A stretch of DNA of 7,114 nt. Source: a virus. Its lineage: Duplodnaviria; Heunggongvirae; Uroviricota; Caudoviricetes. Positions 659 through 6,702 of the stretch are shown one piece after another. The notes beneath the pieces are model-generated. The model was not told the DNA's origin. It saw nothing but the letters and a program-made list of their open reading frames with translations, and searched no databases. The translations under genes and the position numbers were made by a program. The first letter of the stretch is position 1. Each line of letters begins with the position of its first letter. The stretch covers positions 1 through 7,114 of the IMG/VR virus record IMGVR_UViG_3300019374_000122; one strand, given 5' to 3'.

Positions 659-1710
659 TTATTTCCCCACCAGTTCACTTACCTCTTTCACCGTCTGATT
701 AAATCGCTCTGACTCAAGTTCAACACCTAACGCCCGACGCCCCAGCGCCATTGCCGCTTTTATTGTGGAACCGGATCCCATAAGAAATCAGCAACCAGAT
801 CGCCTTGTCGACTACTGGCACTGATTATTTGCCGGAGCATATCCGCAGGCTTCTCACACGGATGTTTACCCGGGTAGAACTGAACGGGTTTATGCGTCCA
901 GACGTCGGTATAAGGCACGGAAACTGATACGGAGAAATAGCGCCGGAGAGTTTTAAACTCATCCAGCAATTCAGAATATTTGCGATTCAGTGAATCATAA
1001 GATGCCACCAGCTGGTGGTGTGGTTGTTCCAGTTGTTGTTCCTGAAATTTCTCTGCCGCTATACGGGAAAACAGTGCCTGCAACTTCCGGTAGTCAGCCT
1101 CATTCGGCAACTGCCACTGACTGGCACCAAACCAGTGGGAAACCATATTTTTCTTACCTGTGGCTTCGGCAATTTGTTTTGCCGTTATACCCAGTTCGGC
1201 ACGAGCATCCCTGAAATACGATATCAGCGGTGCCATTATGTGCTGTTTGAGTTCCCTTTCTTTTGCCGCATAGCCGTCACTTTTGCCGCGATATGGCCCC
1301 TGGTAATGTTCAGCAAACAGAACGCGCTCTGTGGCAGGAAAATATGCGCGCAGACTTTCTTTATTACACCCATTCCAACGTCCGGACGGCTTCGCCCAGA
1401 TGATATGGTTAAGCACGTTGAAACGTTCACGCATCATGATCTCAATATCAGATGCCAGGCGATGCCCACAGAACAGGTAAAGGCTTCCGGCAGGTTTCAA
1501 CACCCGCCAGAACTGGGCCAGACAGTGGTCCAGCCACTTAAGGTAATCTTCGTCCCCTTTCCACTGATTGTCCCAGCCGTTGGGTTTCACCTTGAAGTAC
1601 GGCGGATCGGTAACAATCAGGTCAATGGAATCATCAGGCAGGGACTGAATAAAATGCAGGCAATCAGCGTTGATTAAATCAACACTGTTTATTTTTACAG
1701 TATTTTTCAT
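659..1710 (-). pseudogene. Beta-class DNA methyltransferase (N6-adenine/N4-cytosine, DPPY motif), disrupted by a 1-nt frameshift just before the C-terminal FxGxG AdoMet-binding motif
   Basis: The ORF 760..1710 carries IVTDPPYF near the N-terminus and ends ...DLVADFLWDPVPQ*. A different frame from ATG 781..779 reads MGSGSTIKAAMALGRRALGVELESERFNQTVKEVSELVGK*, with stop at 661..659, which is the canonical motif I and C-terminus. A single missing base around 782-790 would restore one continuous ORF. Confidence 0.75.
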
Positions 1711-2064: not shown

Positions 2065-2185
2065 GTTTTTTCCCTTCTGGTTAACATGACATACCAATAA
2101 CTCTTGTCTAAAAAGCCAGCAAGATAAAAAGCCAGTATTCACGACCACCAGCGTGTTTACTGTACTGCACCAGGTTTACAGGTAC

Positions 2186-2207
2186 AAAAAAACCGCTCAG
2201 CGGCGGG
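2186..2207 (-). terminator. Candidate intrinsic terminator for minus-strand transcription (short GC hairpin followed by U7)
   Basis: Minus-strand RNA reads cccgccgcugagcgg followed by uuuuuuu (plus-strand A7 at 2186-2192). The stem is only 4-5 bp, so this is weak. Confidence 0.3.
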
Positions 2208-2287
2208 TTTAAGTTGTGTGGCGAAGTAACCACTCTTAACAGATTACAATGTTTTTTGCGGACCGCGCTAATGATTTCCTCTTTTTT

Positions 2288-2317
2288 TTGTTGTATTTTT
2301 CACACGGTTGCTAAAAT
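2288..2317 (+). promoter_or_regulatory. Candidate sigma70 promoter for the plus-strand island (-35 TTGTTG, 18-nt spacer, -10 TAAAAT), preceded by a T-rich tract
   Basis: TTGTTG at 2288-2293 and TAAAAT at 2312-2317, with a T-rich UP-like tract at 2281-2300. The implied leader before ATG 2333 is very short, so the exact start site is uncertain. Confidence 0.35.
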
Positions 2318-2332
2318 TATTTCGGATCGATA

Positions 2333-3274
2333 ATGAGTACAGAAAATAAGAATAAAACTAGGCGAGTGAGAGTTGGTTTTTTCACTGGTAATGGAAGCAA
2401 AAAAGATGGCACATCTGCTGCAAAACTAGCCTTTGAGCAAATGACCACAGCAGATACTGTAACTTTTCCAATAACTTACACAACAGACACCCCAAATCGA
2501 GGGTTAAAGTTAGTTATTCTTCAAAAAGATACCACACTGCAATGTTACTTTGGTTACGTATCGTGGAGAAGGGAATGCCTACTACCGTTCATCGAGGATG
2601 CTACAGGTAGTGAGAGAACAATTCCTTTAAATGATAAAGATTCTGTAGTTGAAAGAACATATTTTATCTATTACTACGAAACGGATTTATTAGCTATGAC
2701 CCTCAACCATATAGGGCCCAAAGTAAATGATCTGGCATTCATTTTGTATAACAAAACTGATTTAAAAAGCGTCACTTTTGAAGCCATTTGGAAACAAGAG
2801 AGCATGAAGGAACTGCTTGAGGACGGAAATATCCTACGTAGTTTCGATCTTATAGTTGCTGCTCCAAGAAACTTTAACAAAGCTAATTATAAGATTAAAA
2901 ACCCTTTAGCTAATGAAATTATTGACATGGTTGTTGGTATGGGCGGGTCGCATCTAAGATTAAATATGCGAGGTCGGATTCGCCCGAAAAAACAAGGTTT
3001 TAACTATCTAAAAACTTCTGTCACCGATGCTATTAAGGAACTACTTGAACTTTTTCCAAAAGGTTCTGGAGGTCTAAAAATTAAAAAAATTGATGTAACA
3101 GAGCCATCCAATAGAACGCCCAAAAGTCTACTTGACCAAGTATTGGTCAGTACAAAGACAATCATTGTCAAAAGCGGTTATCCATCCGATTCTGATATCA
3201 GAACGGCGATGATATCTGCTAAAATTGATAACGCGAACTATCTTGCACAGTATGAGCTCGCTAGCAGAGACTAA
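2333..3274 (+). CDS. Hypothetical soluble protein (313 aa), first gene of the AT-rich island; candidate sensor component of a phage-exclusion/abortive-infection module
   Basis: Long uninterrupted ORF in an AT-rich segment (about 38% GC in a 100-nt hand count at 2333-2432, against about 48% at 4201-4300 in the flank). No Walker A, DPPY, HNH or other motif that I recognise. Its stop is 22 nt from the RBS-led start of the membrane-protein gene. Confidence 0.8.
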   Translation: MSTENKNKTRRVRVGFFTGNGSKKDGTSAAKLAFEQMTTADTVTFPITYTTDTPNRGLKLVILQKDTTLQCYFGYVSWRRECLLPFIEDATGSERTIPLNDKDSVVERTYFIYYYETDLLAMTLNHIGPKVNDLAFILYNKTDLKSVTFEAIWKQESMKELLEDGNILRSFDLIVAAPRNFNKANYKIKNPLANEIIDMVVGMGGSHLRLNMRGRIRPKKQGFNYLKTSVTDAIKELLELFPKGSGGLKIKKIDVTEPSNRTPKSLLDQVLVSTKTIIVKSGYPSDSDIRTAMISAKIDNANYLAQYELASRD

Positions 3275-3295
3275 TAACCAAGCATGGAGGACACA

Positions 3296-3745
3296 ATGAG
3301 AGAATTAGCCACTTTTCTCTGGAAATGCGTCCTCTGGATTCTGTTGACCTATGCAGCGACAAAACTGTTTAAACCGATGAAGCATGCTGACGTACTCACA
3401 ACAGCGGGGGTGCTCTCGACTATATCAGGCATCCTGTTTGGTTTTGTTCTGGCTGCAATATCTATATTTAGTAGTGCAAACAGCGATAAGGAAGGAGCAA
3501 TTAATGCCCTTAAGCAAAACAACGTGTTACCAACTCTGGTAAATCGATTACTTTCAACAGGGTTAACTCTCATCGTCGCATGTATATTTCCATTGATAGC
3601 GATGTTTCTACCAGATGATGTTATTGTTGCGGGCAAACCTATTGATTTCCTATTCATACTGTTAGGCTTATCCTCCCTTATAATTTCGCTATATACCTTC
3701 GGAAGGTGTTGGTTAGTGTTACGAAAAATCTTCCCCCACTTGTGA
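3296..3745 (+). CDS. Small integral membrane protein (~149 aa, four predicted TM helices); candidate effector of the island
   Basis: GGAGG at 3286-3290 lies 5 nt upstream of ATG 3296; an alternative ATG at 3284 has no RBS. Four hydrophobic stretches: LATFLWKCVLWILLTYAATKLF, VLTTAGVLSTISGILFGFVLAAISIF, LPTLVNRLLSTGLTLIVACIFPLIAMFL, PIDFLFILLGLSSLIISLYTFGRCWLVL. Confidence 0.8.
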   Translation: MRELATFLWKCVLWILLTYAATKLFKPMKHADVLTTAGVLSTISGILFGFVLAAISIFSSANSDKEGAINALKQNNVLPTLVNRLLSTGLTLIVACIFPLIAMFLPDDVIVAGKPIDFLFILLGLSSLIISLYTFGRCWLVLRKIFPHL

Positions 3746-3774
3746 CAGGTTGGCCTCATATGGGGCCAACCTGT
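3745..3774. terminator. Perfect 11-bp inverted repeat (acaggttggcc / ggccaacctgt) with 8-nt loop, between the convergent island and Q; likely bidirectional stem-loop terminator or insulator
   Basis: Left arm 3745-3755, right arm 3764-3774, loop tcatatgg. It overlaps the stop codon of the membrane-protein gene and lies 7 bp from the Q stop. There is no adjacent U-run on either strand. Confidence 0.5.
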
Positions 3775-3780
3775 GCAACC

Positions 3781-4149
3781 CTAAGCGTCCATTTCAAGGT
3801 TAACATCCAACATTGAAAGGCAACCATCAATAAATCCTTCGGCTAGTTGTATTTCTATGCGTACCAATTTTTCATCCTTTCCACGCACCTTTGCAATCTT
3901 ACGCTTGGATATTCTGTATAAATAATGTGCCACAAGCAGCGAGTGCTCATCTGGCTTTTTTTGCTTTAGACGAGCAAGACAACCTTCAATAATTAATGCA
4001 TCACTATCTGAACAAGCCTGACGTGTTTTGCTTGTGTAGGGAAGAAGCCCCTTAAACCCAGCAGCTATAGGCGAATAGTCTACTCCAGAACTATCACTCG
4101 CCGCCCATGCTCCCCAACGCTCCAGAACCATCTGAATATCACGCATCAA
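3781..4149 (-). CDS. Late-gene antitermination protein Q (phage 82/21 QuuD-like family)
   Basis: Translation MMRDIQMVLERWGAWAA... matches the N-terminal signature of QuuD-type Q proteins as I recall it (MRDIQMVLERWGAWAA...). GGAG lies 7 nt upstream of ATG 4149. Position upstream of the lysis genes fits. Confidence 0.85.
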   Translation of the reverse strand: MMRDIQMVLERWGAWAASDSSGVDYSPIAAGFKGLLPYTSKTRQACSDSDALIIEGCLARLKQKKPDEHSLLVAHYLYRISKRKIAKVRGKDEKLVRIEIQLAEGFIDGCLSMLDVNLEMDA

Positions 4150-6379: not shown

Positions 6380-6702
6380 ACTTTCAGGCCCCTCTCATGT
6401 AACCAGTGGGTTGCACGCAGCCTTGCGTTTTCCTCACCGGCAAGCAGTGAGCGGATAATCCCGACCGCCTCGCTGTCGTCGTCCTTCACCGCGGTATGAA
6501 GCGTGATGCCCCGGGCCACGCCACGCTTTATCGTGATGACGCCTTTTTTCTCCAGTGCGCGAAGATGCTCCACCGCTGCATTCACTGAACGGTATCCCAG
6601 CATGGTTGCCACCTCCTGATTGGTTGGCGGGAAGCCACGTTCTTTCTGATAAGAAATCAGCATATCCAGCACCTGCTGCTGGCATTGAGTTAACGTCGTC
6701 AT
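6376..6702 (-). CDS. LexA N-terminal DNA-binding-domain homolog lacking the S24 peptidase domain (108 aa)
   Basis: From ATG 6702..6700: MTTLTQCQQQVLDMLISYQKERGFPPTNQEVATMLGYRSVNAAVEHLRALEKKGVITIKRGVARGITL aligns with E. coli LexA residues ~4-68 ([65 protein letters not shown]). No Ser/Lys protease domain follows. The start overlaps the upstream stop as TAATG. Confidence 0.8.
   Translation of the reverse strand: MTTLTQCQQQVLDMLISYQKERGFPPTNQEVATMLGYRSVNAAVEHLRALEKKGVITIKRGVARGITLHTAVKDDDSEAVGIIRSLLAGEENARLRATHWLHERGLKV

Follow-up and report, generated by a model that had tools for sequence, protein, structure and literature searches.

The near-perfect palindrome between a membrane-protein gene and the antiterminator gene Q in the analyzed stretch of viral DNA (7,114 nucleotides long, hereafter the window) is most likely an end-of-transcript RNA hairpin, present here in a copy without the usual U run. 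With respect to its genomic context, we consider it probable that the palindrome is the 3′-end hairpin of a moron-like cassette, consisting of genes A and B and the hairpin itself, which resides between the Q stop codon and the late promoter of Q in a QuuD-type lambdoid Escherichia coli prophage [Table 1]. The hairpin belongs to a known kind, i.e., the 3′ hairpins of morons and convergent genes, and alone it is an ordinary 3′-end element expected on a prophage cargo cassette. The slot itself is more interesting. Resolving the hairpin pointed to the probable location of the late promoter and revealed a slot for defense-like cassettes, including the uncharacterized unit of 313- and 153-aa proteins in the window.

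The palindrome reads ACAGGTTGGCC-TCATATGG-GGCCAACCTGT. Its arms, at positions 3745-3755 and 3764-3774, are perfectly complementary over 11 bp, and a repeat finder lengthened them to 15+15 nt with one mismatch (14/15). Because the TGA of gene B occupies positions 3743-3745, the stem begins on the last base of this stop codon; on the other side, a gap of 6 nt (3775-3780) separates it from the Q stop codon (TAG, minus strand, 3781-3783). An earlier, sequence-only reading of this DNA had noted a perfect 11-bp inverted repeat that overlaps the stop codon of the membrane-protein gene and lies close to the Q stop, and the sequence, the repeat finder, and folding all confirm this. The same reading proposed folding of both strands as a check. 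As plus-strand RNA, the 30 nt form a 13-bp stem with one G·U pair and an AUAU loop at -23.9 kcal/mol (z -7.1), and the minus-strand RNA folds with -20.0 kcal/mol (z -5.9); on either strand, none of the 200 shuffles was equally stable. The sole mismatch in the stem is a G·U pair in the cargo-sense RNA and a C·A opposition in the Q-sense RNA. The better pairing on the plus strand favors the cargo-sense transcript, which is a small hint that the hairpin is under stronger selection in this orientation. A search of the window with the Rfam 15 covariance models gave no match at E ≤ 1. The hairpin loop also contains an ATG (within CATATG) that starts a 136-aa open reading frame antisense to gene B (3349-3759, minus strand); this frame, which diverged cassettes do not keep, is probably spurious.

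Table 1. Positions of the palindrome, the cassette, and the neighboring Q and late-promoter elements in the window.
Feature	Position	Strand	Remarks
Conserved Q-proximal block	2184-2277 (approx.)	-	Inferred late promoter PR′, Q-binding/pause region, short leader, and terminator
Inserted cargo cassette	2284-3780 (approx.)	+	Own promoter region, genes A and B, hairpin; extent from homology breaks and GC content
Candidate cassette promoter	2288-2317	+	TTGTTG-18-TAAAAT; 8/12 match, by eye; below scan threshold
Gene A	2333-3274	+	313 aa; phrog_7651; first cassette gene
Gene B	3284-3745	+	153 aa; hydrophobic; phrog_8552; TGA overlaps first stem base
Near-perfect 30-bp palindrome	3745-3774	.	3′-terminal element of the cassette; RNA from either strand can fold into a hairpin
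Antiterminator Q	3781-4149	-	PF06530 (E = 7.7e-52); convergent with cassette

The window is part of a lambdoid E. coli prophage, and the island together with its junction is present with at least 99% identity in 73 of 5426 complete E. coli genomes. In the complete prophage, an early-right operon of approximately 6 kb runs from a cro-like gene to Q, its last gene; the neighbors of Q on the minus strand are RusA, a KilA-N protein, and a DUF968/HNH protein. Beyond the cassette, genes are again on the minus strand (a small ORF, a DNA methyltransferase, and a holin). The window Q is 50% identical to QuuD of DLP12 and has only distant similarity to Q21. No annotated N-type antiterminator was found in the prophage.

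Between these minus-strand genes, the cassette stands out by its base composition, with a GC content of 36-42% compared with 49-57% in the flanks on both sides, as is typical of morons. Homology to relatives that carry other cargo is lost at two borders, the Q stop and a conserved late-promoter block. Homology with these relatives starts at window positions 3782-3788, i.e., at the Q stop codon, and the palindrome is hence in the variable cassette part, which shows that it is a part of the cassette and not of the Q module. The cassette is also polymorphic for presence at this gene boundary, another moron trait, as some relatives have the late-promoter block abutting the Q stop and others carry different cargo. 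Gene B is predicted to encode approximately four membrane helices (by eye), and its start in RefSeq is at position 3296. Neither A nor B has a confident Pfam or PADLOC match or a match to a DNA-binding domain, and comparison of gene A with the 312-aa PDC-S42 protein of another cassette revealed no relationship. The two-gene unit is a candidate for an uncharacterized defense or exclusion system.

The association of this unit with Q extends beyond E. coli. Relatives of gene A were identified at 82 loci, and every one with 44-100% identity has a convergent PF06530-type Q, itself 49-100% identical, right after gene B. Over this identity range, homologues of the A/B unit (L001 and L005-L075), including those of Citrobacter and Xenorhabdus, are always convergent to a PF06530 Q, and the unit nearly always resides at the Q-to-late-promoter junction. 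The farther gene A homologues (40-43% identity; L076-L086) are in a different context with no detectable Q.

Relatives with a Q that is approximately 77-95% identical were gathered from E. coli genomes and IMG/VR contigs. Approximately 20 Q-anchored viral contigs represent an empty site with nothing between Q and the conserved block. Here, the Q stop is immediately followed by CGCGGTCCGCAAAAAGTATGTCAGTATGTTAAGAGTGGTTACT...CTTAAACCCGCCG...GGCGGGTTTTTT, and the motif GTTAAGAGTGG is found at a distance of 28 or 39 nt from it. When 11 versions of the block (six cargo contexts and two empty sites) were aligned, two cores, GCGGTCCGCA and TGTTAAGAGTGGT, proved invariant, with a -35-like TTAnCG before them and a small hairpin and T-run approximately 35 nt after. 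In the window, 1541 nt separate the block from the Q stop and place it shortly past the gene A start; this copy has a terminator-like hairpin with a T7 run at approximately 2186-2207 (2204-2192, minus strand, in the terminator scan). The position directly after Q at empty sites together with this layout suggest that the block at 2184-2277 is probably the late promoter, the Q-loading/pause site, and the first terminator for the Q family of the window. Since the block is located on the far side of the cassette, approximately 2284-3780 would be an insertion between Q and its late promoter. A literature search with the strings of the conserved boxes returned nothing relevant. The comparison with island-lacking relatives, which the earlier reading had suggested for the Q-proximal region, thus identified the late-promoter block there and no palindrome. 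A second terminator-like hairpin is present at 2152-2131 (minus strand).

The module resembles the lambda PR′-qut-tR′ region in having a promoter-like region, invariant boxes, a short leader, and a terminator. It differs in that the cassette separates the module (approximately 2184-2277, minus strand) from Q and in that the palindrome is outside of it. Another comparison is offered by the quuD-nmpC region of DLP12 in E. coli K-12, where a Q of the same family (50% identity), a convergent cargo, and lysis genes follow each other and where the gap also holds GC-rich hairpins. That region differs, however, in having several hairpins in a gap of 190 bp and in carrying a porin instead of a two-gene unit as cargo. 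DLP12 quuD-nmpC is an old example of the Q/convergent-cargo layout. One hairpin in its gap (L087, 1840-2030) is GGGGCGTtgagACGCCCC, which is flanked by A-runs.

The Q-anchored survey (L003, L004, and L110-L184) revealed at least 10 unrelated cargo types in the slot between Q and the late promoter, all convergent to Q. Among these are a KAP NTPase (PADLOC PDC-S20; E about 1e-176), a TIR-TM protein (PADLOC; E about 1e-57), an HNH-like protein (PADLOC PDC-M68A), a three-gene unit with a PDC-S42 protein, a NYN protein, an SDH-protease-like protein, and several units of no known family. As judged from these comparisons, QuuD-type lambdoid prophages exchange defense-like cassettes at the junction between Q and the late promoter. 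The cargo hairpins begin -2 to 14 nt past the Q stop, and each cargo has its own hairpin sequence. The 50 nt past the Q stop are more stable than shuffled sequences (z < -2) in 19 of 20 lineages, with a median z of -4.25, compared with 0.0 and +1.1 at the two empty sites. The lack of a hairpin at empty sites suggests that the backbone needs no terminator at this position and that the element serves the cassette.

The A/B relatives (gene A identity 44-100%) have a stop-to-stop gap of 20-43 nt with one GC-rich hairpin, which exists in approximately 20 sequence versions. Phage cdtI carries a diverged A/B pair in the slot (45% and 50% amino acid identity), and the sequence AAAAAGGGCagaaatGCCCTTTTTT in its 23-nt gap represents a textbook bidirectional terminator with an AAAAAGGGC-N6-GCCCTTTTTT stem. 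For two other hairpins, AACATAGGCCT-TATATG-AGGCCTATGTT (L027) and TTGGCCCC-CAAGT-GGGGCCAA (L021), common ancestry with the window stem is recognizable, and changes in the stems of the closest relatives are matched on both arms. Matched changes in palindrome arms can stem from DNA-level template switching, and the arm changes are therefore not proof of selection on the RNA; the case rests on the recurrence of hairpins relative to shuffled sequences. No motif common to the slot hairpins was found. MAFFT and RNAalifold applied to 11 A/B-clade junctions gave only a 4-bp consensus stem; column-wise covariation is uninformative here, the hairpins being too divergent or nonhomologous. That the structure is kept while the sequence is not points to an RNA 3′-end or terminator hairpin carried by the cassette and speaks against a protein-binding site. 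Conservation of structure without sequence is the signature expected of an element acting at the RNA level (or single-strand level).

The individual steps by which the hairpin might act are less certain than its assignment to the cassette 3′ end. In the lysogen, the cassette would be transcribed from its own promoter, and the nascent RNA just past the gene B stop would fold into the 13-bp stem (-24 kcal/mol), thereby pausing or trapping RNA polymerase. The stem is followed by GCAACCCT on the plus strand and CACAAGTG on the minus strand. As no U-tract follows the stem, release is probably not achieved by classical intrinsic termination; it would more likely be finished by Rho on the untranslated, C-rich antisense-Q RNA downstream. 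The C/G ratio of the plus strand is 1.6-2.1 over the first 180 nt downstream of the stem, which is rut-like, although C-richness of the strand antisense to Q is general to the region and not a specific rut signal. Alternatively, release might result from head-on polymerases coming from the Q side in lytic growth; the Q side should be silent in the lysogen, and collisions can therefore not help there. Trimming by 3′-5′ exonucleases back to the stem would then give a stable mRNA 3′ end. On the Q-sense strand (-20 kcal/mol), the palindrome may form the terminus of the early-right operon behind Q and reduce the antisense transcription that enters the cassette; after induction, with both sides transcribed, head-on collisions would contribute to this effect. 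The net effect would be the insulation of two convergent transcription units within a 35-nt gap.

Another model, which we regard as unlikely, is that the U-less hairpin and the strictly convergent orientation together provide self-immunity in the manner of a one-way valve. In the lysogen, the hairpin would end and stabilize the cargo mRNA and shield Q, while early transcription after induction would pass the U-less stem and silence the cassette by antisense. In this scenario, heavy and possibly antitermination-modified early transcription through Q would run antisense through the defense-like cassette and collide with its transcription, which would keep the cassette from aborting the lytic cycle of its own prophage. 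The Q-to-late-promoter slot would be a previously undescribed hotspot for defense cassettes, each with such an insulator. A literature search did not find the slot described as a defense-cassette hotspot, which is not proof of novelty.

A further possibility is a classical bidirectional Rho-independent terminator, in which the hairpin and a U-tract free the polymerase unaided in both directions. The GC-rich stem (11-13 bp, -20 to -24 kcal/mol) is positioned at the 3′ end of the unit exactly between convergent stop codons, and sister cassettes, e.g., those of phage cdtI and L143, have terminators of the A-tract/stem/T-tract type in the same position. Most sister hairpins are accompanied by A/T tracts; in at least one of the two directions, the best 8-nt window beside the stem holds four to seven T's. 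In contrast, the window stem, which is among the most stable of the compared junctions, has no more than two T's per adjacent 8-nt window, whichever strand is read, which is the minimum among 23 junctions. It thus lacks the U-rich tract 3′ of the stem that intrinsic termination requires, as well as the A-tract 5′ and T-tract 3′ of a canonical bidirectional terminator, both of which the cdtI sister has. The terminator scan of the window is also silent at 3745-3774, where there is no T-run. Efficient termination by the hairpin alone is for this reason doubtful, and the classical mechanism appears quite improbable. The sequence-only reading had offered a bidirectional terminator or a stabilizing 3′ hairpin. 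Its RNA-level role is upheld by comparison, as 19 of the 20 cargo lineages have a hairpin and the two empty sites have none, whereas the canonical bidirectional version does not agree with the missing U-tract. A very stable U-less hairpin within 35 nt between convergent stops, alongside sister cassettes whose hairpins at this position are canonical bidirectional terminators, constitutes a comparative set for the contribution of the U-tract in vivo relative to Rho, collisions, and 3′-end protection.

The preferred reading, a cassette 3′-end hairpin, can be placed among known systems. In the classical description, lambdoid morons such as those of HK97 and HK022 have a factor-independent terminator [Cumby et al. 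2012, PMC3594210]. The window cassette resembles these morons in being a lower-GC inserted unit that is variably present and has a 3′ hairpin and candidate expression signals of its own, an arrangement that would allow expression from a repressed prophage without disturbing the neighbors. It differs from them in that its hairpin has no U-tract and its promoter is only a candidate. For convergent genes in E. coli, the work of Ju et al. 2019, as summarized by Wang et al. [10.1101/2022.10.23.513370], describes bidirectional terminators that are unlike intrinsic terminators: the hairpin pauses or traps the polymerase and collisions complete the termination. As far as that summary describes them, the likeness is one hairpin in a very short gap between convergent stops, and the window accordingly has a hairpin between convergent genes without the features of an intrinsic terminator. 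The difference, on the same summary, is that these terminators need simultaneous transcription from both sides; in the window, the Q side should be repressed in the lysogen, and such a mechanism would apply only after induction. REP hairpins provide a third comparison. The U-less REP325 is reported to be a partly Rho-dependent terminator and an mRNA stabilizer, and the presence of REPs between convergent genes is associated with higher expression of both [Harris et al. 2026, 10.64898/2026.03.23.713779]. The window hairpin shares with REP hairpins a stable GC-rich stem and no U-tract. However, the palindrome occurs in one place per genome, always in the A/B cassette context, both in E. coli genomes and in IMG/VR, and has no REP consensus; a REP or other dispersed repeat was rejected on these grounds.

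That the palindrome is without function, having arisen by chance or by hitch-hiking, is very unlikely. This explanation draws on the fact that E. coli has a single sequence version of the palindrome. It is unchanged in the 73 genomes and identical in 17 IMG/VR contigs as well. The earlier reading would have counted its absence from island-bearing relatives against a function, and no such absence was seen: each of the 73 island-bearing E. coli genomes retains the palindrome with an identity of at least 99%. These copies are near-clonal, and their conservation therefore says little. The arguments against chance come from elsewhere. The window contains a single perfect 11-bp inverted repeat with a loop of 0-12 nt, compared with 0.015 expected per shuffled window, and independent hairpins in 19 of 20 cargo lineages with none at empty sites are incompatible with chance.

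Highly improbable, in our judgment, is a palindromic operator, in which the duplex would be bound by a dimeric protein such as one of the LexA-family or HTH regulators, several of which are encoded by the prophage. The dimeric protein-binding site considered in the sequence-only reading is attractive in view of the 30-bp near-perfect dyad. However, lineages, even those of the A/B relatives, have the hairpin potential in common but not the sequence, and the element travels with the cargo and not with the backbone: prophage backbones that encode near-identical regulators have different cassettes, the hairpins of which are unrelated. Neither in the window nor in 12 kb of the prophage do additional half-sites occur beyond chance. 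Moreover, the palindrome is located at gene 3′ ends away from any promoter, and A and B themselves have no DNA-binding domain matches. The LexA box is CTGT-N8-ACAG; this candidate was rejected since the palindrome ends in ACAG...CTGT, which is the reverse order with the wrong spacing.

The same low probability applies to a DNA-level recombination signal or cassette boundary, such as an attC-like folded site, a cruciform, or a transposon end, that would mediate cassette exchange. Almost all cassettes at the slot end in an imperfect palindrome and are in this respect formally like integron cassettes, and the arms hold GTTGGCC/GGCCAAC with a faint likeness to attC core sites. This core matches in only 6/7 positions, is in the wrong order, and is absent from the other cassettes, and an attC-like site was consequently rejected. 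Against a recombination signal in general, the slot hairpins have no core motifs in common, many of them are ordinary T-tract terminators, the neighborhood of the slot encodes no integrase or transposase, and neither cassette arrays nor flanking direct repeats (by eye) are present; the long conserved flanks formed by Q and the late promoter suffice for homologous exchange.

In lambda, the late promoter is located right behind Q, which explains why the sequence-only reading expected a late promoter and a qut element at the palindrome. The probability that the palindrome is a portion of either is close to nil, given that the promoter-like block and its terminator adjoin the Q stop only in cargo-free relatives and are on the far side of the cassette in the window, that the palindrome is missing from all relatives with other cargo or none, and that the promoter scan reports nothing at 3745-3774, in agreement with the same reading, which saw no convincing sigma70 hexamers there.

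Further observations concern the remainder of the window. The DNA methyltransferase gene (659-1710, minus strand) is split into ORFs of 316 and 40 aa by a 1-nt deletion in an A-run around position 782; the intact 350-aa methyltransferase of E. coli AR435 (L002) served as reference. The split gene is either a frameshifted pseudogene or the result of a sequencing error. The AR435 prophage also has approximately 650 bp (L002, 9103-9750) with a phage N-6-adenine methyltransferase gene that is missing from the window at 6699-6702. At the other end, the first approximately 594 nt of the window, the holin region with a lambda S-type holin (PF05106), cannot be aligned to the essD-type holin region of AR435. 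The prophage backbone is mosaic.
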